NCBI GenBank assembly: GCA_963726395.1
Contig: CAVSCG010000036.1
Location: forward strand, 19,060 to 83,059
Length of the DNA: 64,000 nucleotides
Direction: 5' to 3'
Origin: an uncultured delta proteobacterium
Lineage (GTDB): Bacteria; Desulfobacterota; Syntrophia; Syntrophales; Smithellaceae
A program made the position numbers and the translations under genes. The notes beneath the pieces were generated by a model. That model was not told where the DNA came from. It ran no database searches and saw nothing but the letters and a program-made list of their open reading frames with translations. Shown one piece after another: positions 5,109 to 25,009 of the stretch. Every line of letters starts with the position of its first letter. The stretch's first letter is position 1.

Positions 5109-5995
5109 ACTGTTTTTCTCCAGCTCGATAACGGTCCATCCAGTAACGATGCAAGACGTTGCATCATCCGGCCTGTCGTGTATCGCCTTGCGGTTGCAAC
5201 TGCCGCTTGCCGCATTCGGAAAAGCAGACCGGCACATTGTTCCTGAAGAATCTCTCCAACGGCGCCCACAAAGTCCTGCGACTTTACGATCCGGCAATTT
5301 ATGCCATCGTCAAGGTATTCCATGCCTCCCAAAACCGGTAAAGACACAACCAGGCAGCCAGCCGCCATTGCTTCTAGTGCAGGAAGTCCAAACCATTCAT
5401 GCTCAGCGGTCGCCAAATAAATTGAGCTGTACTGCATGATACGGGCTACCTCAGCTTCACAAATATTGTCGATCGCAATATAACGCTTGCTCGCGTAAGC
5501 GCGCTTTACCTCATCGCATATATACCCGCCACGGCGTGGCATGTATGCAACAGCGTTTTCGAATTTCGGCACTCCGGCGTAAAAAAAACTCGACGTTATT
5601 GATATTCCAACCTCGATAGGATTAATTACACTATGCGTCTGGACATATTCCGTGGCTTGCCTCCAGCAGGTAAGCACCTGCACGGAAGAATTGGCAAGAA
5701 TAGGATCAATGAGAGGATCTGTCCCCTGGCAGTGGAACACTAACTGTCCGGGAAGTTTCCGTAAAGCAGCATAATCATGCGGCAGTGAAAACACAGCGGT
5801 GTCTTCCGGCCGAAATGAATCACGCACGGCTTCAGCATCAACGACCGCAGCATGAGAAAAAAACCAATCCGCAGTTCTTCCTCCGGGAGAAGCAATGACT
5901 GCCATTACTCCAAGCGCATTCAGCGCATCAACAAACTGGTAGGCAACCTTGATCCCACCAAATATTGTCGTATCGGGAACGAAGTAATACAACAT
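5105..5995 (-). CDS. Glycosyltransferase, GT1/GT4-like
   Basis: 296 aa. E-x7-E-type motif EHEWFGLPALEAMAAGCLVV. Start shares one base with the upstream stop. Confidence 0.7.
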   Translation of the reverse strand: MLYYFVPDTTIFGGIKVAYQFVDALNALGVMAVIASPGGRTADWFFSHAAVVDAEAVRDSFRPEDTAVFSLPHDYAALRKLPGQLVFHCQGTDPLIDPILANSSVQVLTCWRQATEYVQTHSVINPIEVGISITSSFFYAGVPKFENAVAYMPRRGGYICDEVKRAYASKRYIAIDNICEAEVARIMQYSSIYLATAEHEWFGLPALEAMAAGCLVVSLPVLGGMEYLDDGINCRIVKSQDFVGAVGEILQEQCAGLLFRMRQAAVATARRYTTGRMMQRLASLLDGPLSSWRKTV

Positions 5996-6812
5996 CAGTT
6001 ATGCCCCTGTTGTGTCATCCTTTTGTTTTTTGGTATTAACATAAACAAAAGTCTTTCAAAACAAGCTCCGTAATGTCGACGTGCATATTGCATTCTGGCA
6101 GCATTTAACAAATTTATACGATGATTGCAATCGATCGATGAACCGAGTTGAGCATGATGCTGTACCGTGAAGTCGAGCGTCATCACGTTACCACCCAACC
6201 GGGTAATCGCTAGTCCAAATTCAACGTCTTCCATATACAAAAAATACCGCTCATCAAATCCTCCGGCTTCCAAGAAAAGATCCCGCGAAATAAAAGCACA
6301 GGCACACAACGGCCATTGCCAGCTTTTAGTGTCATAATCGGGGAGAAGCTTGATGAGTTTGACGATCCGGGACCAACCACGATTGATTTCAATCATATCG
6401 GCAAAAATCTTTTTCCATGTATAACCAGGCTGGCAGCCTTTAACAATCGTCCCGTCGTCGTGAAGAAAATCGGGCACTGCAACGCAACGCCCGTGCTTTC
6501 GGAGTAATTGCGAGGCAACCTCAAGAGCCCGGCATCAACAATGCAATCAGGATTAAGAAAGCAAAGAAATGGTGACCGTGCCGCACGCGCACCGTAATTT
6601 ACTGCGCGTGCAAATCCATAGTTCTGGTTTAACGCATAGACTTCCGCTCCGGCATCACGTGCAAGCTCCACCGAGCCATCACTTGAAGCGTTGTCAACAA
6701 CCAGCACCTGGCCGGCAGAACACGCCTCCAGCGCAGCGAGGCAATCCGGCAATACAGCAGCGGAGTTGTGCGTAACGATTAATGTCGTTAATTCCCGTTT
6801 ACTAAATCCCAA
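5995..6812 (-). pseudogene. Glycosyltransferase family 2, frameshifted
   Basis: Two overlapping ORFs (6393..6812 and 5995..6477) together form one GT2: TLIVTHNSAAVLPDCLAALE..VVDNASSDGS..FLNPDCIVDAG | ALEVASQLLRKHGRCVAVPDFLHDDG..FISRDLFLEAGGFDERYFLYMEDVEFG. Adding one C to the C3 run at 6528..6530 restores the frame. Confidence 0.8.
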
Positions 6813-8168: not shown

Positions 8169-9203
8169 TTAAGCTTGTTTTTTTAGTTTAATCATTTCTT
8201 TGAATCTTTTCAATCTTTGTCCAATCATACGAAGAGGCCTGGTAATGCGCCAACTGGTAGAGTTATAAAGTGCTGCAATCTGGTTGTCTCTCGCGGTCAA
8301 GAACTGTTGCAGCTCCTCCTTTTGAGCCAGGAGTTCTTCTTTCGTCACGTGACTGGCGCTATAAATAAATTCTACGCTCGGATTATGTCTGTATGAAATA
8401 TTCGTTAACAGCTTAACATCCAATTTGTGTTGCCATATAACATAAGGAAGGCTGAGCTGATCTCGCCTTGAATAATTTTCAACCCACCACCACCAATCAT
8501 TCATCACAGCGATGACTCGATCATCGTGATGTTCCCTGTACATTATATTACTTTCAAACAGACCATTTTTTGCCGGAAAACCGGCTCTTCTGATCAAGTC
8601 CACCTGTCTTCTCATGACATTTTCATCGTCTTTTCCCAGTTCCATGCAAGCAGTGAGTTCATCATAAATGCAACTTCTGACCGGATGTGGTGCAATGGAT
8701 ATCAGACGGGATTCAGCTATGGCCATGTCGATGTCGGCAAACAGATCTTTATTCAAAATATTGATGTTGGCGTCAAGCCATATGCTTTTTTTATACTCGG
8801 GAAACAGGATGTGCGGATGGATTTTATGCCATCTCTGGTTGCGGACATTATCCAGCTTGTCAAAAAGAAGAGGCCTGATGTCCCAGAAAGAATCGGCGGC
8901 GTTGACAATGGATAAATCATCGGTAAAACAAACATAGTCCCAATCCTGATTGACAAATGTATGATTGATAAGATCATCATAGCCGTCGGTTATGCAAGTG
9001 TATATCACGCCTTTTTTTTGACTATTATCCACAGGACTCGACCTTATGTCGCTTTGTATAAATAATGGGTTAATTGCATGAATTATCGCTTTAAAAATGT
9101 CATGATGGTTTTCTGCGCAAGAATAATATGTAAATACGCCTTGCCAATCTTTGTGCCGGGGGTGGCAGCAGATGCATATGTTCTTTAACTTTATTTCCTG
9201 CAA
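8169..9203 (-). CDS. DUF616 (TOD1/MUCI70-like) glycosyltransferase-domain protein with C-terminal STSWRITRPLR module
   Basis: Contains GVIYTCITDGYDDL...WDYVCFTDD, typical of DUF616. The maximal ORF starts at TTG 9203 and overlaps the upstream gene by 104 nt. A GTG at 9032, preceded by AAGG, is an alternative start. Confidence 0.7.
   Translation of the reverse strand: MQEIKLKNICICCHPRHKDWQGVFTYYSCAENHHDIFKAIIHAINPLFIQSDIRSSPVDNSQKKGVIYTCITDGYDDLINHTFVNQDWDYVCFTDDLSIVNAADSFWDIRPLLFDKLDNVRNQRWHKIHPHILFPEYKKSIWLDANINILNKDLFADIDMAIAESRLISIAPHPVRSCIYDELTACMELGKDDENVMRRQVDLIRRAGFPAKNGLFESNIMYREHHDDRVIAVMNDWWWWVENYSRRDQLSLPYVIWQHKLDVKLLTNISYRHNPSVEFIYSASHVTKEELLAQKEELQQFLTARDNQIAALYNSTSWRITRPLRMIGQRLKRFKEMIKLKKQA
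8172..8285 (-). repeat. Third copy of the STSWRITRPLR module, at the C-terminus of the DUF616 protein
   Basis: NQIAALYNSTSWRITRPLRMIGQRLKRFKE matches the two modules in the upstream gene. Confidence 0.8.
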
Positions 9204-11229
9204 ATCGCAAAGGCCTGGTTATTCGCCAGCTTGTCGACTGGTAGAGTGCAGCAATCTGCGCATCGTGCTCGGAAACGGCCTGATCGAGGTCTGTGCCCCG
9301 TCCGACGCCGTTCCCAGTTAAGATTTGCATTGGCTGCCGTCCCTCCGGCAATCGTCCGGCCGGCATCGGCATCAGATGCATATATTTTTTAACTTTGTCT
9401 CCTGCAAATCGTAAAGGCCTGGTCATTCGCCAGCTCGTCGAGGAATAAATGGCGGCAATCTGCGCTTCACGGTCCGCCAATATTTCGAGCGGAAGGGATG
9501 GGCTTTCGTGATTCATGTAAGTACGCATTGTTTTATAGTAGATACAAGTGCTGCAAGGAATATCTTCCCGCGGAGGCATCAGGCCCATTAACATTTGACG
9601 CGCATAATTTATCTTTTCATTGTTGATGCATTCCAGCAATCCCTCTTCAAACACATTTCCGTAGTCCAGTTTATAATTAATGCTGCAACCCAGCAGTCTT
9701 CCGTCCGCATGGATCTGGAGGTTTTCCCAAAGCTGCCCGCAGGAAACTTTTTGCAGGTAATGCTCCCCGTGCTTTTCTAAATATTCCTGCCGGTCGGCGC
9801 AATCCAGGCCGCTTTCTCTCCGTATACGTTCCCGATTTCTTACCGGCGAAAATATTTTGCCCGTATACAGATCGCCAAAGGATAATTTTACGCGAAAATC
9901 CATTTTCAGTTCAACAGCCATATTTCTTGCTTTTTCAATTTCGTGTTCATTATGTCCAAAAGCAATAAACTGCCAGGTCATTTTAGGCAGATCCGTTTTG
10001 TAGCGCTGCTTGAATGCATTGATCGTACGAATATGAGCAATGACTCTTTCAAAGTCGCCGCCGACACGGTATATTTTATAGGTCTCATTGGACGCCCCAT
10101 CCAAAGCAACGGTCATACCCTGTAATTGATATTTCACCAGAGCCTCTAATATGTCGCTGGTGGCGGTATTCAAATTCACGCCGCAGTTTGCCTGCAAGGC
10201 GACATTCTTTTTAAATCCGTATTTAAGAATGGCTGTTATTTCAGGATTTAAAAGGATTTCTCCCCAGTTCGACAATTCGATAGATTTGATCCATGGATTG
10301 GCATCAATTAATTTTTTGAAATCGGTAAATTTCAAGAATTTTGCTCCTAAAGTCTTTAGCGTCATCCCCTGACCGGTAGGACAGGAAGGGCACTTAAGCT
10401 GACAGGCTGAAGACGCGTCAAGCATAATGAATGACGGCTTAATCATTCCATTCAGTTTGAAACCGGATAATTTCTGCCATCGCTCTGCGGAATGTCGATG
10501 AAATTCGAAGACGAGATATTTGGCTGTACAATCGGTAGGGTTGGACATTCCATGGGGTTTCCCGGCTTCATAGAAAATCACGCTGGGCGCTTTGATGATT
10601 TGGCCAAGCGTCTCTACTTCCCCTTCCAGGAGAAGAATGGCCACGTCGTAAGGATCAACATGCGGTTCATAACCGGAGCCGGAAGCCAGACTCGTCGCGT
10701 GACAGTGAAGCTTTCCCAAATACTGGGTCGGCTCCTCAAACATAAGTTGCATCGAAAGACTCTGATCGACACCAATCTCATCCCGTGCCGGCAGAGCATT
10801 GAAACGACAAAAATCCAGCATGGCGTTCCGAAAAGAAGAGAGTCCGCGCCATCGAAACATAAGATAATTTGCTGGTTGTTCGCTGATCGTTTCGAGACTG
10901 TGCGCGAAGTTGGCCGGGTAGAAAACAAAATCGTATTTTTGTAAACGTTTCCGATAAAAGCCGGGTTGAGCGGAGGCATGATGATCTTTCAAAATAATAT
11001 CGATTTCGCCCGATAAAACAATCAGAATCTCTTCGTCTGTGTGTTCATGAGGGGCGTGCGGACTGAAACCGCAGGCCAGTGTTGAAGCATGACAGGAAAG
11101 ATGGTTCAGTGTAGCCGTTGAACCCTGAAAAATAGGATAAGGCTTCCACACTTCCCCGGCATCCAGAGGCAAAGGAAGTTTGAAGGGATAGCACCCGCTT
11201 TTTATTACCGTTTGATTGATGATTCTCAA
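9100..11229 (-). CDS. Bicupin + radical SAM/SPASM fusion protein with two tandem C-terminal STSWRxTRPLR modules
   Basis: 709 aa. Cupin 1: GFSPHAPHEHTDEEILIVLSGE..PANFAHS. Cupin 2: YEPHVDPYDVAILLLEGE..GKPHGMSN. Radical SAM cluster motif: CQLKCPSC (Cx3Cx2C). A Cys-rich SPASM-like region follows (CGQLW..GCSINY..PCSTCIYY). Two repeats follow: AQIAAIYSSTSWRMTRPLRFAGDKVKKYMHL and AQIAALYQSTSWRITRPLRFAGNKVKEHMHL. Confidence 0.8.
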   Translation of the reverse strand: MRIINQTVIKSGCYPFKLPLPLDAGEVWKPYPIFQGSTATLNHLSCHASTLACGFSPHAPHEHTDEEILIVLSGEIDIILKDHHASAQPGFYRKRLQKYDFVFYPANFAHSLETISEQPANYLMFRWRGLSSFRNAMLDFCRFNALPARDEIGVDQSLSMQLMFEEPTQYLGKLHCHATSLASGSGYEPHVDPYDVAILLLEGEVETLGQIIKAPSVIFYEAGKPHGMSNPTDCTAKYLVFEFHRHSAERWQKLSGFKLNGMIKPSFIMLDASSACQLKCPSCPTGQGMTLKTLGAKFLKFTDFKKLIDANPWIKSIELSNWGEILLNPEITAILKYGFKKNVALQANCGVNLNTATSDILEALVKYQLQGMTVALDGASNETYKIYRVGGDFERVIAHIRTINAFKQRYKTDLPKMTWQFIAFGHNEHEIEKARNMAVELKMDFRVKLSFGDLYTGKIFSPVRNRERIRRESGLDCADRQEYLEKHGEHYLQKVSCGQLWENLQIHADGRLLGCSINYKLDYGNVFEEGLLECINNEKINYARQMLMGLMPPREDIPCSTCIYYKTMRTYMNHESPSLPLEILADREAQIAAIYSSTSWRMTRPLRFAGDKVKKYMHLMPMPAGRLPEGRQPMQILTGNGVGRGTDLDQAVSEHDAQIAALYQSTSWRITRPLRFAGNKVKEHMHLLPPPAQRLARRIYILFLRRKPS
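9154..9465 (-). repeat. Two tandem copies of an approx. 36-aa coding module (AQIAA[IL]Y.STSWR[MI]TRPLRFAG.KVK..MHL.P.PA)
   Basis: Copies at about 9358..9465 and 9154..9261 are also similar at DNA level (ctgcaaatcg[ct]aaaggcctggt[ct]attcgccagct). Confidence 0.85.
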
Positions 11230-11345
11230 AACTCCGTTTAGTTATCCGCGCCTGCCAAAAAGCGATAGGTCTGACTATTATGATCAAAGCTGTTTGAACG
11301 CTTTACCATGCCAATTTTATGATTCAATTTTAAGTTACTATCCAT

Positions 11346-12049
11346 CTACGCGGAAATCAAATTACCGCGGTCCAATTGGATAGTCCGGTTGCAAACTTTT
11401 TCGACCAGTTCCGGTGAATGCGTCGCGATAATCAGGATGCTGGATTTCTGAACAATTTCATGTAACCGTTGCTGTGCTTTTTCCTTAAAATCGGCATCCC
11501 CGACCGTCAACCATTCATCCATAAGAATAATCTCGGGTTGCACAAGCGTCGCTATTGAAAAAGCTAAGCGCATCTGCATGCCTGTGGAATAGGTCCGAAG
11601 CGGCATGCGAATGAAATCACCCAAGCCGGCGAAATCAACAATATCAATTATCTTGGAGGACAGCCATTGACGGTTGAAACCGAGCAGAGCTCCTCTAAGG
11701 TAGATATTTTCTATGCCGGTTGCCTCTCCATCCATCCCGAGGCTCAGATCAATCATACTGGTAATTTTCCCCTGGACTTCGAGACAACCCTCTATCGGCT
11801 CATAAACTCCGGAAATAACCCGCAGCAATGTGCTTTTACCTGCGCCATTGTGACCGACCACACCCACCCGGTCTCCTTCTTTAATTCAAGGCTAATGCTT
11901 TGCAGAGCCCTAACGACCACACGACCCTGTTCATTGGAACCCATGCGGCCGCCGGTTGCCGCCTGCATCAGCTGGTTTTTCAGCGAACGTCCTGTGGTAT
12001 TATAGATCGGAAAATCAACACTTACATTATTCATACGAATGTGTGTCAT
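11346..12049 (-). pseudogene. Polysaccharide/O-antigen ABC exporter ATP-binding protein (Wzt/TagH/KpsT type), frameshifted
   Basis: 11792..12049 (MTHIRMNNVSVDFPIY..ISLELK) plus 11346..11867 (GVVGHNGAGKSTLL..YSTGMQMRLAF..LMDEWL). There is one indel near 11879. The product is short (about 235 aa) with no C-terminal carbohydrate-binding extension. Confidence 0.85.
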
Positions 12050-12058
12050 AAATCAATC

Positions 12059-12860
12059 CTATAACCAATAAGCTATGCGCGAACGAAACCGTCCGTAAAA
12101 TAAGATTGTAATGCACCATCCTACCAAGGCCAGTACAACACAAATAAGCCAGCTGAAGCAGATGGCAGCGTTCCCAGTAAGGGTGCACGGACAATTTCGA
12201 TCAAATGGAAAAAAGGATTGGCGTCCAGCAAAAGAAAGCTGGCGCGTTTCGGCAATAGATACGGCATCCAGATGATCGGCGTCAGATAAAAGCAAACCTG
12301 CAAAAGATTGCTGAAAGATCTGAGGCATGTCGCGAAAACGGGTACAAAAACACCAAGCAGCAGAGCCATCCAGGACAAGTTAATCATCAATAGCACAAAT
12401 CCAAGAAGCGGAAAAAATTGCGGTAGCACGTAAAGGCACCCAGAAGACCAATAAAACCAAATGGATAGATGACAATGTTATGAGCAAAAATAACCACGAT
12501 TGCGCCATATCACCCGAAGAATATGCGTAAATAGACGGCAGAGAAATTTGCTTGATGATGGCCTCGGCCACTGTGAAGCCAAGTGCAGCCCTCGATTAGC
12601 ATCGTAGTGATCAGCGTCCATAAAATCAACCCGATGGTAAGGAAGGGTAAAAACTCTTTCATCGGAGCGGCAAAGAGATTACCAAATACTAAACCAAGCG
12701 CTCCAATCAACACACCCATGCTGATGGTAATCCAAAAAGGCCCGAGTGATGATCGCCGATAACGTTGACGAATATCCTGCATGCCGAGAATACCGGCCAG
12801 TTCATAACCCTTTAGAGCCGCAAAGATATCGCGCCAACCGGAAATAAATAATTTATACAT
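12059..12860 (-). pseudogene. ABC-2 type polysaccharide exporter permease (Wzm/TagG/KpsM type), at least 3 frameshifts
   Basis: Four overlapping ORF pieces (12510..12878, 12380..12571, 12121..12429, 12059..12328) read consecutively as one ABC-2 permease: MYKLFISGWRDIF..QDIRQRYRRSSLGPFW..NPFFHLIEIVRAPLLG. Confidence 0.75.
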
Positions 12861-12883
12861 AAGTTTAATAAGCACCAAGCTGA

Positions 12884-13651
12884 CTATCCATTATATATCT
12901 TTAATACCATACCAAAGCTGCCCCACATACTCTCTGAAAATAAGCTGTTATTGTAAAGCCATTGAGACTGCGGAATGTATCGGACTGCGGGAGTACCTGC
13001 CGGCGATGCGTAGAGATAGTTAGACGGCAGAGGAATCACATTGTTGAAAAACTTTCGAAATTCTGTCTCGCTTCGTTTCATGTGATAGGCCGAAGTCACC
13101 AGTCCGATCTTTATATCTTTATCGACGAACATTTTGTTGAACTTCACCGCATTTTCATACGTGTTTTCCGATTTGGCTTCGATGCGGATCCTCTCCTTGG
13201 GCACGCCGAAGGCTTCGGCCATTTGCGCCATAAGCGCCGCATCGGATATTTTGCCATCGCCTTTCCCGGAGCAGACAAGATATTTGGCATTGTATTCTTT
13301 ATACATTCGAATGGCATGAACCAGCCTGACGGTGGTAGCTTCGCCGGGAAACGTTTTGTCCAGGGCATGAATATAGTAATTGCCCCCGCTCAATGCTACG
13401 ATAACATCAAGTGTCATTTTTTCTCCGACCGGACGGTTCTTGATATAGTCTTTCTCCAGCCTGTAGCTCAGGTAGTTGGATGTAGGCTCGATGCTGAATC
13501 CATAGAGTAAAACAATGGTTAAAAATAAAAACAAAACACCGCTTTTTTTCTTGCCTGAAATCAGGCAAATCAAAAAAGAGATAAGCAGAAAGACAAAAAT
13601 AATAAAAATGGGATCAACGCATGATTTCAATATATGGTAAATTTGCTCCAT
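12884..13651 (-). CDS. DUF218 (YdcF/ElyC/SanA-like) envelope protein
   Basis: 255 aa. N-terminal TM segments. Contains VALSGG..ATTVRLVHAIRMYKE..LVCSGKG and LVTSAYHMKRS. Confidence 0.8.
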   Translation of the reverse strand: MEQIYHILKSCVDPIFIIFVFLLISFLICLISGKKKSGVLFLFLTIVLLYGFSIEPTSNYLSYRLEKDYIKNRPVGEKMTLDVIVALSGGNYYIHALDKTFPGEATTVRLVHAIRMYKEYNAKYLVCSGKGDGKISDAALMAQMAEAFGVPKERIRIEAKSENTYENAVKFNKMFVDKDIKIGLVTSAYHMKRSETEFRKFFNNVIPLPSNYLYASPAGTPAVRYIPQSQWLYNNSLFSESMWGSFGMVLKIYNG

Positions 13652-14202
13652 GGCCTATCTGTTCTCCTGGGATTTCCATTCGACAATAAGTATTTTTAAG
13701 CCTGTTTCCTGATCTTTAAACCTTGATGAAACTTGTCCTTTTTACAGCTCCGCCTCTTCAGTTACATCAGCGAAAGAAATGTAATCTATTAATAATTACA
13801 ATACTTTCCCAACGTTTTTAATAAACTGATGATGCAAGTTATAGAAAACAATGAGAATAAGCAATAAAAAGTTATTTATCGATTTGAAATATTTTTCTTC
13901 GGAATGCCATAGTCTCGCATCACATCTGGATGACCTTGTCTTCGGGCAGCAACTGGCTGACAAGGCTTTTGAAACGGTCCAAAAGCATTCCTGGATTAAA
14001 AAAGCGGAGCGAATTGAAAGATTCATCGGCAATATGAAACCTGCCGGGATATAATTATTTATAATGGTCTTTCCTAGCGAAAAGTGATAGTTTTTTTAAA
14101 AAGCATTTCGGCTTCCCCAGGTGAAATTTTCCATCTCGCTGATTGTGCATAAGTTTCAGTAGAATTCAGAGAAAAAGGAAAAAAAGGACAAGACTTTTCA
14201 GC

Positions 14203-15423
14203 ATGATGATTAGGCAACTTTTTCACAAATACACCCAGATCGTCATCGTCCTTTGTGTTGCATCCCTTGTTTTTTTAAATCCTTTTCCTCATGTTACCGC
14301 TCCGAGTGAAATATTTTTTTATACCGCGCTGGCCCTGGCGCTATTGCTGTTTATTTCCAAGGCCACGAGACCGGACATCAGCTCACCACTTGGCCTTCCT
14401 TTCCTTTGCTTTCTGCTGTTTGCGCTTGCCAGCATCGCCTGGGCCTTTGATTGGGAAAACACCGCGCATGATGTGTACCGGCATCTCTTAAGGCACATCG
14501 TTTTGTATCTCATGCTCATTTCTTTCTTTATCAGAAAGGAACACCTCCTGGCCCTCATCTGGTCCATCATCGCATCAACAACCCTTTTTTCTCTGGCTGC
14601 TCTCATCCACAGCTACATCATACTTGCAAGCCCCATATCATTCCGGATAAACTTTGAGGATATCGGAAGCAACCAGATCGCTCAGTATTGCCTGCTTGGA
14701 ACGCTCTTATCTCTGTTTTATTTCCCCGTGGCTAAAAAATGGTACCAAAAAACCGTATTAATGATTTGTTTTGTCATTACCATTTCAGCCGTCATTTTAT
14801 CTTATTCAAGGGCCTGTTTACTGGCTCTGGGAGTAGCATGTCTTTTCTGCATTTTTACGGCATCTAAATTCAAGAAGACCCTTATCGTGGTCAGTCTATT
14901 GATTCTGGCCGTCTCCATTTCACTTTTTAATCTAAGTCCGGATTATCATGAAAGAGCCCGGACCAGCACATATGAAAGAATAAAGATTTATGCAACGGCT
15001 TATGAAATGATTAAGGAAAGACCTGTTTCCGGATTCGGCTACGGAATGGAAGCATTCAAACAAAACTTTTTTAAATTCAATAAATTGAACCCGCAAAATC
15101 TTGTAAGTCAAATCGATTACGCGCATCCGCACAATGTATTTCTAGATATTACCATAAGGCTCGGCCTGGTCGGTCTGGTTCTTTTTTGTTGGATCTTGTT
15201 TCGTGTTTTTAAGATGGGAGGAGAATTGATTTGCCGCAGCAGGGATCCTTTTTACAGGCACTGGGGAATCGGCATCACTGCCTGCCTGATCGCTTTTTTG
15301 ACTGCCGGATTATTTGGAAACATTTTGAATAACAGGAGCAGCGTGATCCTTTACACAATTATAGCCATGATCACGATTCTCTGGAAACTTAATCAATACC
15401 CGGTATCGGATCCGAATCGATAA
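14203..15423 (+). CDS. O-antigen ligase family (WaaL/Wzy_C-like) membrane protein
   Basis: Polytopic membrane protein. A periplasmic loop with SRACLLALG....HPHNVFLDI fits the Wzy_C domain. ATG 14203 is preferred over the listed TTG 14143. Confidence 0.75.
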   Translation: MMIRQLFHKYTQIVIVLCVASLVFLNPFPHVTAPSEIFFYTALALALLLFISKATRPDISSPLGLPFLCFLLFALASIAWAFDWENTAHDVYRHLLRHIVLYLMLISFFIRKEHLLALIWSIIASTTLFSLAALIHSYIILASPISFRINFEDIGSNQIAQYCLLGTLLSLFYFPVAKKWYQKTVLMICFVITISAVILSYSRACLLALGVACLFCIFTASKFKKTLIVVSLLILAVSISLFNLSPDYHERARTSTYERIKIYATAYEMIKERPVSGFGYGMEAFKQNFFKFNKLNPQNLVSQIDYAHPHNVFLDITIRLGLVGLVLFCWILFRVFKMGGELICRSRDPFYRHWGIGITACLIAFLTAGLFGNILNNRSSVILYTIIAMITILWKLNQYPVSDPNR

Positions 15424-15516: not shown

Positions 15517-16308
15517 ATGAGCTTTTTCAAAGAACTATTATTCGGCATAAGCAGACGGAAAAACGTCGCCCGAGATTTGTCAGGGAGTCTCTTGGCGGCG
15601 AAACAAATCATCTTGACCAACTATTTTACCGGCAAGAAGGATTCTCAAAGGGGTGGAAAAGATCAATTCGAACCGAATCAATTTGAAAACATGAAGGGGT
15701 GGTATAATAGCATCTTAGCCAATCAACTTCATGGCCTTATATTTCACGATCAGCTTTCAGAAGACTTTGTCGGCAAATATACCAATGACTACATCTCCTT
15801 TGAAAAATATGAACTCAAAAAAAGATATTCATTAAATGACGACCGTTTCTTCTGCTGGTATGAATGGTTGCTTCAGCATGAAGAAGTGGAATCCCTGTTT
15901 TGCACGGATTTATTTGATGTGGATTTTTTCGGGAATCCTTTTCACCTGATGGATCCTTTACGATATGATTTATATTGCGGTGATGCTAATGGTGCTAAAA
16001 TGGATGAGTGGGTCAATAATAGAATGGAATGGGCCTATGGCAAGACTTTTCACGCCGGGAAAATCAAATTTATAGCGGGCATCATGGGCGGAACACGCGA
16101 AAATATGCTGCGCCTGTTCCAAGCCATGACCCGTGATTTCGAGAAGGCGAAGCGCGCAACACGAAAAGGGAAAAATATGAATATGGGAGTGTTCAACAAG
16201 TGCGTTCATGACTTGTTTGAACAAGACAGGATATTATTCGGGTCACCGCTGAATAGCCGTTTTAAAAAGTTTGAAGGACAAGGTAACTTCTGCATCCGGC
16301 ATAAGTAG
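15517..16308 (+). CDS. Hypothetical protein, possible novel GT-A-like transferase (DVD motif)
   Basis: 263 aa and soluble. I recognise no named family. Contains LFCTDLFDVDFFGNPF (DxD-like). Sits inside the glycan locus. Confidence 0.4.
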   Translation: MSFFKELLFGISRRKNVARDLSGSLLAAKQIILTNYFTGKKDSQRGGKDQFEPNQFENMKGWYNSILANQLHGLIFHDQLSEDFVGKYTNDYISFEKYELKKRYSLNDDRFFCWYEWLLQHEEVESLFCTDLFDVDFFGNPFHLMDPLRYDLYCGDANGAKMDEWVNNRMEWAYGKTFHAGKIKFIAGIMGGTRENMLRLFQAMTRDFEKAKRATRKGKNMNMGVFNKCVHDLFEQDRILFGSPLNSRFKKFEGQGNFCIRHK

Positions 16309-16508: not shown

Positions 16509-16913
16509 CTACTCACAGCACCAACAAAGCGTGACAGTCAAAGCCATCTGAAGTTTATCGTAATCCAGAGGTTTTGAACCGTGAATATGGTGGAGTTGAC
16601 GTGCGTTGGCCAGGACAACCTTAAAACCACGGCTGTCCAGAATCTCAAATAACGGTATCCAGTATACACCCGTGCTTTCCATGGCGACGGTCTCAACACC
16701 CTGCTCCTTGAGCCAATCGGCAAGCCGCACCAGTTCAGGGGTCGTCATGCCGAAGCGCGCCACATTCGGACGGTCGTCATCCCGTGACGGACCGGCAACC
16801 CAGTGTTCACGAGAACCCAGGTCTATCCCGGCTGCATCCGGTTCGATGGTCTTAAGAGACCGATGTGAGTGTGCACGATCATTTTTGTTGACTTTCTTGC
16901 GTTGACCTACCAT
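16509..16913 (-). pseudogene. IS110-family (DEDD) transposase, N-terminal fragment only
   Basis: AAGIDLGSREHWVA...VETVAMESTGVYWIPLFEILDSRGFKVVLANARQLHHI is the RuvC-like DEDD_Tnp_IS110 domain. The ORF stops after about 134 aa and no C-terminal Transposase_20 domain lies downstream. Confidence 0.8.
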
Positions 16914-17231: not shown

Positions 17232-18263
17232 ATGCATTTAAAAAGTAATAATATTTTAGTTACCGGTGCTGCCGGGTTTATTGGTTTTCATCTTTGCAAT
17301 CGTCTTCTTGGTGATGGCAATGACGTTGTCGGTATCGATAATATCAATGATTACTATGACGTGAACCTGAAACATGCCCGTATTGCCATTCTACAAAAAC
17401 ATAGCAACTTCACTTTTTATAAAATAGATATTGCTGATCTTCATGCCATGGAAGACCTCTTCGCCAACCAACGCGAAAATGCTTTTGATGTTGTAATAAA
17501 TTTGGCTGCACAGCCAGGTGTACGCTACTCACTGAAAAACCCTCATTCCTATATCAGAAGCAACATTGTCGGATTCACTAACATTCTGGAATGTTGCAGG
17601 CATAACAAAGTCAAGCATCTTGTCTTCGCATCATCCAGCTCTATTTACGGAATGAATGACAAGATTCCCTTTTCGGTCAGCGATAACGTTGATCATCCTG
17701 TTTCACTTTATGCCGCTATCGAAAAAAGCAAATGAACTTATGGCGCATACTTACGCGCATTTCTATGGATTACCCTGTACCGGCCTGAGATTTTTTACAG
17801 TGTATGGCCCCTGGGGCCGTCCCGATATGGCTTATTTCTCTTTCACGAAAGCCATTATGGAAGGGAAACCGATTGATGTATTCAATTATGGCAAAATGAA
17901 ACGCGATTTCACCTATATTGATGATATTATCGAAGGTGTTGTTCGTGTCATGGATAAAATTCCTCAGCCAAATCCCGAATGGGACAGAAAAAATCCCGAT
18001 CCAGGTTCAAGTTATGCTCCCTATAAACTATACAACATTGGCAACAATAATCCCGTAGAACTGATAAAATTTATCGAAGTATTGGAAAACAATCATCGGT
18101 AAAAAAGCACAAAAAAATATGCTGCCCATGCAGCAGGGAGATGTTCCGATTACATATGCTCGATGTAGATGATCTAATGAATGATGTTGGATTTAAGCCA
18201 GCCACACCGCTAGAAGAAGGGATCAAAAAATTTGTCGAGTGGTACAAAGGGTATTATAAGTAG
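17232..18263 (+). pseudogene. NAD-dependent UDP-sugar (UDP-glucuronate-type) 4-epimerase, three frameshifts
   Basis: VTGAAGFIGFHL...SSSSIYG...YAA[T][11 protein letters not shown]...[14 protein letters not shown]...LPMQQGDVPITYA|DVDDLM..FVEWYKGYYK. Single extra bases at about 17719, 18094 and 18161 move the frame 0>1>2>0. None lies in a homopolymer. Confidence 0.85.
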
Positions 18264-23828: not shown

Positions 23829-25009
23829 TTATACCTTTTTTTCGCGTGCGTGACTTAGCATTTTCTCCTGATACAGATCTTCGTACAGGACAGACATTTC
23901 TTCAAGATAACGCTTCCAGGAATACGCTGGAAGCACTTGCCTGTTATAATCACAAATGGTTTTTCTTTCCAGCGTCAGCCCATTTTCAATCTTATCGGCA
24001 ATTTCAACGGGATTCGTCGGATCATCGATGATATAGCCGTTTTTACCCTCATCCAGAAGCTCTGAACCACCGCATATTCTCGATGTCACCAGAGGGATTC
24101 CCGCCGCCATGGCTTCCAGACAGACATTGCCAAAGGGTTCATAGATGGTCGGAAAAATGAAAAGATCGCTGGCGCAGTAATATCTTTCCACATCGGCCAG
24201 AGGACCCAGGAAGATGACGCGTTTTTCGACCCCTTCCTTTTTTCGCAAGGGCTCGATATGGGCTAATACTGTCTTTTCCTATTACCATGAGCCGAACATC
24301 TGAATCCACTTTTGTCAATGCCTCTGATAGCAAATGGAAGCCCTTTTCTCTTAAAACCGGATCCGACAAAGAGAAGGACTCGTATATCCTGTGAAATTCC
24401 GAGGAAATGCCTTACCTCATTGCGCATCTTCTCACGGTCTGGCAGGTCGAATCGATTTGTGTCGATGGCATTATAGACGACTTTGATTTTTTTCGACGGC
24501 ATCTCATAATGCTTGACAATTTCATCTTTTCCCCTTTTGGATATAGCAATGATCATTCTTGCCTTGCCTTCTCTAAAAATTTTCTTTTCTATCCAAAGAA
24601 TGCTCAGGTGCAACGGATTTATCTTGTGCAAAAAGAACTTGTACCAGGGATCTATTTTCTGTCGTTGAATGAGCCATTCGCGGTGACACCCGTCGCTGGC
24701 CCTGTATATGTCCTGGTAAAGGGTTCTCTCAAAACTATGGACGATGTCGAATTCTTCCCGTTTCAGCATCCTGCGTGCATTAAGGGCAAAACTCAAGACC
24801 TCTAAGAAAGATAACCCCCGGATGATCGGAACCTTATGCAAGACCATCCGGCGCGGTGCAAAATCAGATTCATTTTTGTTAATTTTCCACTCACTGGCAA
24901 AAAGATGAATTTCATGGTTGGATCCGGCAAAATGCTTTATCAAGGCCGCGAGATATCGCTCCGCGCCGCCAAACTCGGAATATTTCTGTTTCACGAAAGC
25001 AATTTTCAT
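23829..25009 (-). pseudogene. Glycosyltransferase family 4 (WaaG/RfaG-like LPS core), two frameshifts
   Basis: Three ORF pieces (24263..25009, 24139..24369, 23829..24248) form one protein: MKIAFVKQKYSEFGGAERY..LFVGSGFKRKG|FHLLSEAL..LMVIGKD..ALAK|KEGVEKRVIFLG..PTIYEPFGNVCLEAMAAGIPLV. Shifts map to a G run near 24355 and to the T6 run at 24238..24243. Confidence 0.8.

Follow-up and report, generated by a model that had tools for sequence, protein, structure and literature searches.

A 64,000-nucleotide stretch of DNA from an uncultured delta proteobacterium of the Smithellaceae (contig CAVSCG010000036.1 of assembly GCA_963726395.1; the whole stretch is hereafter called the window) contains a gene for a protein in which a bicupin, a Twitch-type radical S-adenosylmethionine (SAM) module and two C-terminal copies of a repeated motif follow one another in a single chain of 709 amino acids. 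Judged by the repeated fusion of its relatives, found in hundreds of mostly uncultured bacteria, to glycosyltransferase (GT)-like domains, this enzyme probably performs radical chemistry on a cell-surface sugar. We tentatively regard it as a two-module carbohydrate-tailoring enzyme that would act as one portable unit with a GT-like partner, in this case a DUF616 protein encoded 67 nt downstream, and we put the chances of this reading somewhat below even. We rate the protein as a combination of known cofactor modules that is new, widespread, evolutionarily reinforced and tied to glycan assembly. Its family extends to about 450 species-level genomes, a large share of which have the radical SAM module fused to a bicupin, a GT-like domain or both, in several independent arrangements. 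To our knowledge, carbohydrate-acting radical SAM enzymes come almost only from antibiotic pathways (BtrN, HygY, NeoN, DesII and BlsE), and our searches found no described radical SAM family dedicated to cell-surface glycans. The family therefore offers a testable entry to undescribed sugar chemistry in anaerobes and candidate phyla, including Smithella, Omnitrophota and anammox bacteria.

Architecture of the radical SAM-bicupin protein

The open reading frame (ORF) lies at 9100..11229 on the minus strand, has a TTG start and no internal stop codons, and runs from the bicupin through the Twitch-type radical SAM module to the two motif repeats. It is a real, intact gene, far beyond what chance would produce. 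Searching about 5.8 billion proteins with the full-length sequence, a query that biases the search towards matches with both modules, retrieved 462 matches; among the 120 best homologues, 112 combine the CX3CX2C motif of radical SAM enzymes and a cupin motif in one protein, 93 with the radical SAM module first and 19 with the bicupin first. A Smithella protein (P0002; 709 aa, 87% identity, E=0) has the same architecture, as does, over its full length, a protein of 718 aa (P0006; 74% identity), and the same fusion of 690–718 aa is encoded on independent contigs. A 99%-identical copy of the ORF was found in an uncultured Smithella sp. (locus L013), and every indel within the ORF either keeps the frame or is compensated when set against a Smithella locus of 88% identity (L001). 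Because homologues of the same length and architecture occur at E=0 in independent assemblies, the ORF is neither a mis-join nor a chance product. A preliminary description made from the DNA letters alone had named a mis-joined gene pair as a possible source of error; our check excludes it, given the 112 best homologues with both modules in one protein and the in-frame indels. The four parts which that description had recognized in a single ORF are likewise borne out by the uninterrupted frame, Pfam, the AlphaFold2 models, Foldseek and the homologues, so that the earlier observation is confirmed as a whole while its interpretation is partly supported. Scanning for promoters and terminators around the gene gave results indistinguishable from shuffled sequence.

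The bicupin half was identified by Pfam Cupin_2 (45.2 bits, cutoff 27.2), which matched two stretches, one of them at residues 59–124. We aligned the bicupins of 43 homologues, all of them with the radical SAM module first. In barrel 1 (10846..11148, minus strand; approximately residues 28–128, as delimited by the Cupin_2 match, the alignment and the strands of the AlphaFold2 model) the invariant columns are H47, H58, H61, H63, E66, E67, G74 and H110, among which H61-x-H63-x3-E67-x6-G74 together with H110 makes up the classical three-His-one-Glu metal motif of cupins. The first cupin was therefore rightly described as canonical. Barrel 2 (10498..10809, minus strand; approximately residues 141–244) had been called degenerate, which it is not merely: H177, H190, D192 and H226 are invariant and form an HxD...H set, with D195 nearly invariant. 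Both barrels look metal-binding on the strength of these residues. The protein contains cupin motif 1, G(X)5HXH(X)3-4E(X)6G, a motif 2 with its His, and two barrels. A weak JmjC_2 match within barrel 2 (residues 183–204; 13 bits, cutoff 22) raised the possibility of a JmjC or 2-oxoglutarate oxygenase, which we rejected on that score, on the His-to-His spacing, which suits cupin motifs 1 and 2, and on the fact that many of the hosts are anaerobes.

The AlphaFold2 model of the bicupin half was confident (predicted local distance difference test, pLDDT, 91) and confirmed the bicupin fold; it retrieved DR1152, YlbA, MncA, OxdC, BacB and AerE in Foldseek, with E values of 1e-13 to 1e-10 and template modelling (TM) scores of about 0.65; the only bicupin match by sequence in the PDB was MncA, and it was marginal (E 0.002). 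The YlbA/DR1152 ureidoglycine aminohydrolase family, MncA, OxdC and the isomerase BacB share with the window protein the presence of two cupin barrels per chain. However, identity to the known bicupins is 10–18%, the second barrel of the window protein has its HxD...H set, and fusion to a radical SAM domain is seen in no known bicupin. By its classical motif, barrel 1 can also be compared with the single-domain metal cupin sugar isomerases, phosphomannose isomerase (PMI) and the archaeal cupin-type phosphoglucose isomerase (cPGI).

The radical SAM core (9865..10437, minus strand; approximately residues 265–455) contains C276-x3-C280-x2-C283 at 10381..10404 and an 'SNWGE' SAM-binding motif. The CX3CX2C motif, correctly read in the preliminary description, is invariant in 54 of 54 aligned homologues. 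Pfam Radical_SAM matched residues 274–428 slightly below its gathering score (26.0 bits, cutoff 29.5) and matched 73 of the 75 family members scanned at E≤1e-3. In the likewise confident AlphaFold2 model of this half (pLDDT 89), strands and helices alternate as in a partial TIM barrel, and Foldseek aligned it with probability 1.0 to more than 50 radical SAM structures, including SuiB, SkfB, BlsE, CteB, DesII, viperin, BtrN and PqqE. Exactly seven cysteines are invariant across the 54 homologues, namely the three of the core and C497, C515, C559 and C562; cysteines at positions 374, 496 and 534 occur in only 57–76% of the sequences, and two of these positions are V and S in the window protein.

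The auxiliary domain that follows (9505..9762, minus strand; approximately residues 490–575) has the arrangement C497-x12-G-x4-C515 ... C559-x2-C562. A SPASM motif has seven cysteines, CX9-15GX4C-gap-CX2CX5CX3C-gap-C, and binds two auxiliary clusters, whereas a Twitch domain is a truncated SPASM domain with one (PMC6231123). The extension had been described as Cys-rich and SPASM-like, and Pfam SPASM does match residues 497–562 (27.7 bits, cutoff 21.5). Nevertheless, a full seven-Cys SPASM domain is rejected: only CX12GX4C (497–515) and CX2C (559–562) are present, without a following CX5CX3C, and the four invariant cysteines make the extension Twitch-like. They predict that a single auxiliary cluster is fully ligated, as it is in the Twitch prototype BtrN (butirosin 2-deoxy-scyllo-inosamine dehydrogenase), where one Cys before a beta-hairpin, one after it and a CX2C after a helix ligate one [4Fe-4S] cluster (PMC6231123), and their placement in the window protein is alike. 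With 28 bits against a cutoff of 170, the protein is outside the NCBIfam N_Twi_rSAM model. Nothing in the sequence points to methylation, one of the modifications proposed earlier, and neither a B12-binding nor a methyltransferase domain was found in the window protein.

The window protein is a member of the radical SAM and cupin superfamilies that resembles Twitch carbohydrate enzymes such as BtrN. It has in common with BtrN, HygY and NeoN a radical SAM core with a short C-terminal domain, these three enzymes acting on carbohydrate-like substrates. The Foldseek match to BtrN (4m7t, E 4.5e-7) comes with only about 15% identity and a query-normalized TM score (TMq) of 0.48. There is no match at the sequence level, even with the family profile, and neither the protein nor the profile retrieved any radical SAM entry from the PDB at E≤1. 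BtrN also lacks a cupin, a GT partner and the C-terminal motif, and its gene is part of a cluster for an aminoglycoside. The substrates of BlsE, DesII and viperin are sugars or nucleotides, from which they abstract hydrogen at a carbinol carbon. These enzymes are among the best structural matches (ranks 5–26, TMq 0.52–0.57), but with 12–16% identity and with none of them fused to a cupin or a GT; the BlsE model of NCBIfam gave 11 bits (cutoff 400). Membership in any NCBIfam radical SAM family (W_rSAM_matur, spiroSPASM, BlsE, NirJ, AhbD, MftC, PqqE, MoaA and others) was rejected, as the best score was 58 bits against 380, and across 75 family members no E value was better than 1.2e-22 and no curated cutoff was reached. 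In the searches made, neither a Pfam or NCBIfam model nor a solved structure or publication matched the family, and the literature searches returned no description of a radical SAM-bicupin enzyme. These results agree with the earlier statement that no characterized enzyme has this architecture, and homology places the protein in no curated family of a different function.

Repeat motif, gene fusions and partner genes

The two C-terminal repeats, at 9340..9489 (residues 581–630; REAQIAAIYSSTSWRMTRPLRFAG) and 9136..9285 (residues 649–698; HDAQIAALYQSTSWRITRPLRFAG) on the minus strand, had been noticed from the letters alone. They are 60% identical and have the common core QIAA(I/L)YxSTSWRxTRPLRFAG. 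A third copy of the motif ends the adjacent DUF616 protein (8172..8312). In the Smithella locus L001, the motif is also found inside a multi-GT protein (ORF at 10750-15171 as called and 10891-15171 as annotated; motif at about residue 849 of the called ORF), so that three consecutive enzymes of this Wzm/Wzt locus carry it. We built a 50-position profile from the three window copies and used it in an exhaustive search of 1.84 billion representative proteins (E≤1e-3), which returned 570 protein clusters. The W, P and R of the motif are invariant, and some proteins (P0121, P0124 and P0128) contain 10–15 tandem copies. The 61 long matches included GT2 (22), methyltransferase (12), GT4/GT1 (11), sulfotransferase (4), RgpF (4) and WbsX (3) proteins, with the motif mostly C-terminal to, or between, GT2, GT4, methyltransferase, sulfotransferase and RgpF domains. 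No Pfam model matches the motif, and we know of no description of it. The repeats are thus a tag common to cytoplasmic enzymes of polysaccharide assembly and tailoring, and STSWRxTxPLR may be a general docking tag of glycan-assembly enzymes, for the membrane, the transporter or partner enzymes. Because the motif is mainly found on such enzymes, it independently places the window protein with the glycan-assembly machinery. The C-terminal coiled-coil modules are comparable to those of WbdD-type enzymes, which bear coiled coils and tailor or terminate O antigen in pathways that use an ABC transporter.

We then scanned one genome per species (185,579 genomes) by pattern search and found relatives of the radical SAM module in 446, nearly all of which are metagenome-assembled genomes. 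The carriers include Omnitrophota, anammox Planctomycetota, Verrucomicrobiota, Lentisphaerae, Cyanobacteria, Melainabacteria, Acidobacteriota, Binatia, Methylomirabilota and Desulfobacterota. Loci were surveyed for the best-scoring 80 of the 446, with genes called crudely as longest ORFs of at least 90 aa. Within the family the module occurs on its own, joined to the bicupin, or joined to GT-like domains (PF03407, DUF616/TOD1_MUCI70 and GT4). The bicupin is fused to it in around 21 of the 80 loci and is encoded by a separate gene, usually immediately upstream, in another 13. An N-terminal PF03407 'nucleotide-diphospho-sugar transferase' domain is present on 12 of 75 radical SAM proteins, 10 of which have a bicupin gene directly upstream, while in loci L033, L034 and L057 a PF03407 gene is followed by a radical SAM-bicupin fusion. 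Moreover, triple fusions occur in four arrangements: PF03407-bicupin-radical SAM in a Brocadiaceae protein (P0081), DUF616-bicupin-radical SAM (P0064), bicupin-radical SAM-DUF616 (P0010) and GT4-radical SAM-bicupin (P0023, P0024, P0029, P0037 and P0038). The strongest argument for joint action of the radical SAM module, the bicupin and the GT-like protein comes from these independent fusions, and proteins such as P0024, with all three predicted activities in one polypeptide, are attractive for biochemistry. The fusions to PF03407, DUF616 and GT4 domains, together with the motif on glycan enzymes, also make a role in glycan rather than peptide modification, as originally suggested, the better fit.

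In the window, the GT-like partner is the DUF616/TOD1_MUCI70 gene at 8169..9032 on the minus strand (287 aa; PF04765, 45.9 bits), whose product ends with the motif copy mentioned above. Judged by the orthologues in L001 and L004, translation probably begins at a GTG at 9032, which leaves 67 nt between it and the radical SAM stop. The same gene pair is present in L001-L005, L013 and L015, and DUF616 is the conserved downstream partner within the window protein's own clade. Co-occurrence with both wzm/wzt and DUF616 had been suggested as a check; it holds for DUF616 in this clade, but Wzm/Wzt genes accompany the module only in the Smithella-like clade and at one other locus. L001 contains WecA-type, Wzm and Wzt genes besides the multi-GT gene of 1,426 aa, and L008 contains three Wzt genes with sulfotransferases and GTs. 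In L007, the neighbours are Wzx, Wzy, ATP-grasp and AsnB genes and two further radical SAM genes. The exporter is absent from L004, where the radical SAM-bicupin and DUF616 pair stands alone amid unrelated metabolic genes, from L009, where a GT4-radical SAM-bicupin triple fusion stands alone, and from L011, where the sole related neighbour is a PF03407 gene. An obligatory association with Wzm/Wzt is ruled out by these three and the other surveyed loci. When the 270 genes in first or second position beside the module are taken together, Cupin_2, GT2, GT4/GT1, GT28 and other radical SAM proteins are the Pfam families that recur most often.

Proposed chemistry and competing explanations

By analogy with characterized enzymes, we propose that the reduced [4Fe-4S] cluster would cleave SAM and that the resulting 5'-deoxyadenosyl radical would abstract a hydrogen atom from a hydroxyl-bearing carbon of a sugar, which could be a nucleotide sugar or one already part of a glycan. 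The auxiliary cluster, predicted to be fully Cys-ligated, could then accept an electron from the substrate radical and yield a keto-sugar, as has been proposed for the oxidation of the radical intermediate by the fully ligated auxiliary clusters of BtrN and the anaerobic sulfatase-maturating enzyme anSME (PMC6231123). Beside the new carbonyl, the bicupin metals might catalyze a non-redox enolization leading to isomerization, epimerization, elimination or decarboxylation. The same three-His-one-Glu site is employed by PMI and cPGI, which are metal-dependent cupin isomerases of sugars. The GT-like partner would install the resulting rare sugar, or alternatively provide the substrate, while the coiled-coil/STSWRxTxPLR repeats would dock the enzyme to the cytoplasmic glycan-assembly machinery. 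The keto-sugar route in particular is considerably less probable than the overall picture of a carbohydrate-tailoring enzyme working with a GT-like partner. That overall picture gains from the presence of the carbohydrate- or nucleotide-acting enzymes BlsE, DesII, viperin and BtrN among the top structural matches. As the partners belong to four different GT-like families, they fit a cassette that makes one unusual donor or decoration and joins it to whichever acceptor the host has. In a bolder version, which is possible rather than probable, the trio would be a portable cassette, spread over many mostly uncultured and often anaerobic phyla, that makes and attaches an undescribed surface-glycan sugar or linkage through radical SAM oxidation and metal-cupin rearrangement. 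If true, it would represent a new class of radical glycan-tailoring enzyme rather than a variant of the aminoglycoside-type Twitch enzymes.

Several results weigh against a carbohydrate-tailoring unit of this kind. Its chemistry is proposed by analogy only. The similarity to solved radical SAM enzymes is modest (TMq 0.48–0.63, identity 12–16%); the top Foldseek matches are the peptide maturases SuiB and SkfB rather than sugar enzymes, and the best NCBIfam matches, far below threshold, are 'metalloenzyme maturase' families. Around 46 of the 80 loci have no bicupin within the available flank, with radical SAM modules that are still 50–56% identical, so that the radical step does not require the bicupin. 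Gene neighbourhoods vary greatly, the 494 neighbour proteins falling into 389 clusters, and they contain no conserved reductase, although a keto-sugar product would normally need one. Lastly, the exporter genes beside the window copy are pseudogenes.

The strongest competitor, which is nonetheless doubtful, is a radical epimerase, decarboxylase or dehydratase, in which the radical SAM module itself would make the final product, in the manner of HygY/NeoN, of BlsE acting on a uronic acid or of AprD4 and viperin, and the bicupin would be separate or accessory. BlsE, DesII and viperin do stand above BtrN in the Foldseek ranking, and decarboxylases such as OxdC are among the relatives of the bicupin. 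TupA-like ATP-grasp genes, which we take to be of the teichuronopeptide type, are neighbours in three loci and in L007 and hint at uronic acids. Twitch sugar epimerases also exist, HygY being one (cited in PMC10991966). Against this, there is no invariant Cys beyond the seven predicted cluster ligands that might serve as hydrogen-atom donor, and an epimerase of the HygY/NeoN type is disfavoured because an eighth such Cys is missing for hydrogen-atom return; in addition, the structural matches are too weak to pick among these chemistries.

A maturase of proteins or cofactors is unlikely. Here the radical SAM/Twitch module would post-translationally modify an amino acid in the bicupin or the GT-like partner, for example by forming a cross-link or an oxidized residue, and the matured metalloprotein would then act on the glycan. 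SPASM/Twitch enzymes are mostly modifiers of peptides or proteins, CteB joins SuiB and SkfB among the top structural matches, the best NCBIfam models are 'tungsten cofactor oxidoreductase radical SAM maturase' and 'putative metalloenzyme maturase', and covalent fusion to the would-be target, in both orders, suits a dedicated maturase. Yet at 58 bits against cutoffs of 380–400 the protein falls outside those families, roughly half of the close radical SAM relatives have no bicupin nearby, Pfam detected no RiPP recognition element (RRE; RiPP, a peptide that is synthesized ribosomally and modified post-translationally) or peptide-binding domain, and a stoichiometric one-shot maturase joined to its own substrate would be unusual. 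A RiPP maturase proper was rejected. SuiB, CteB and SkfB resemble the window protein in structure (E 1e-10, TMq about 0.6) and through the Pfam SPASM match, but the window protein has only four of the seven SPASM cysteines and neither an RRE-type Pfam match nor a leader-peptide-binding domain, and its family is found with bicupin, GT and other radical SAM genes instead of genes for peptides or transport proteases. Beside the window gene we saw no precursor peptide, nor any conserved small peptide gene among the recurrent neighbours, in a survey that did not systematically search small ORFs below 90 aa.

Less probable still is that the substrate would be the head group of a membrane glycolipid or a lipid-linked intermediate, instead of a nucleotide sugar or the repeat unit of a polysaccharide. 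Stand-alone members adjoin GT28/monogalactosyldiacylglycerol (MGDG)-synthase-like GTs (L062, L069 and L025), membrane methyltransferases of the PEMT/ICMT type and MsbA-like ABC exporters, and the module is also found outside polysaccharide loci (L004, L009 and L011). However, this support comes mostly from relatives without a bicupin, whereas proteins of the window type bear a motif typical of soluble O-antigen/rhamnan-type assembly enzymes, and inspection of both sequence and models, made without a transmembrane predictor, picked out no membrane segment.

The surrounding locus and other relatives

The first 26 kb of the window are a region of lipopolysaccharide (LPS)/O-antigen type with GT2, GT4, GT9 (heptosyltransferase), WaaL/Wzy_C ligase, DUF218 and DUF616 genes. 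Wzm and Wzt genes do lie beside the radical SAM-bicupin gene among GTs, as first described, but they do not encode an intact exporter. The wzt (ABC ATPase) pseudogene (11346..12049, minus strand) is split into two reading frames by a 1-nt deletion near 11883, and the wzm (ABC-2 permease) pseudogene (12062..12860, minus strand) is spread over three reading frames, with at least six uncompensated 1-nt indels within about 500 bp (12582, 12536, 12499, 12462, 12408, 12347 and others) relative to the intact L001 orthologues. Frameshifts also appear to have split a GT2 gene (5995-6812, minus strand; N-terminal half at 6393-6812, the rest at 5995-6477), a short-chain dehydrogenase/reductase (SDR)-type epimerase/dehydratase gene (17232-18102, plus strand; parts at 17232-17735 and 17656-18102) and a GT4 gene (23829-25009, minus strand), the N-terminal domain (24263-25009) and C-terminal domain (23829-24248) of which are in different frames. 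By comparison, the 3 kb with the radical SAM-bicupin and DUF616 genes contain no frameshift. Because wzm is so heavily hit while this pair is spared, the damage looks local, reflecting pseudogenization or a poor patch of assembly rather than uniform sequencing error, and either way the pair is independent of the adjacent exporter. The frameshifted wzm, wzt, GT2, SDR and GT4 genes are what might suggest that the radical SAM-bicupin ORF is itself an artefact, fused from two genes by an assembly indel or decaying as a pseudogene along with the degraded locus around it, but this is extremely improbable and is refuted by an uninterrupted frame of 2.1 kb with all catalytic motifs intact, indels that are in frame or compensated, and the homologues of the same architecture on independent contigs, including the 112 of 120 with two modules.

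Two further features lie nearby. A truncated transposase gene of the IS110 family (DEDD_Tnp_IS110, 134 aa; 16509-16913, minus strand) is located between the region of the WaaL-like ligase and the split SDR gene, as would suit an LPS locus that is decaying or has been rearranged. A plus-strand ORF of 263 aa (15517-16308) with no Pfam match follows shortly downstream of the WaaL/Wzy_C-like gene (14143-15423).

Some relatives elsewhere show other arrangements. In L009 (390-4732) and L010, the stand-alone GT4-radical SAM-bicupin gene is flanked on both sides by DUF1285_N ORFs (124 aa and 155 aa), as if it had been inserted into or beside a duplicated or split DUF1285 gene. In one protein of 648 aa (P0013), the radical SAM module is tandemly duplicated, giving two complete radical SAM-Twitch units without a cupin. 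The module is clustered in L020, L025, L028, L041 and L089 with two to four other radical SAM genes, some of them B12-binding, and with DegT aminotransferase and GT28-like genes. A full radical SAM-bicupin homologue of 640 aa (L029, contig CAZJVP010000088.1; radical SAM module 51–55% identical) lies on a contig binned as an 'uncultured Thermococci archaeon'; either the gene was transferred horizontally into an archaeon or the contig was binned wrongly. The cyanobacterial relatives (Snowella L062 and L069, and L022, L048, L065 and L075) are stand-alone and without a bicupin; in the two Snowella loci, two MGDG-synthase-like (GT28) genes come after the radical SAM gene, a hint that the role of that branch may concern glycolipids.

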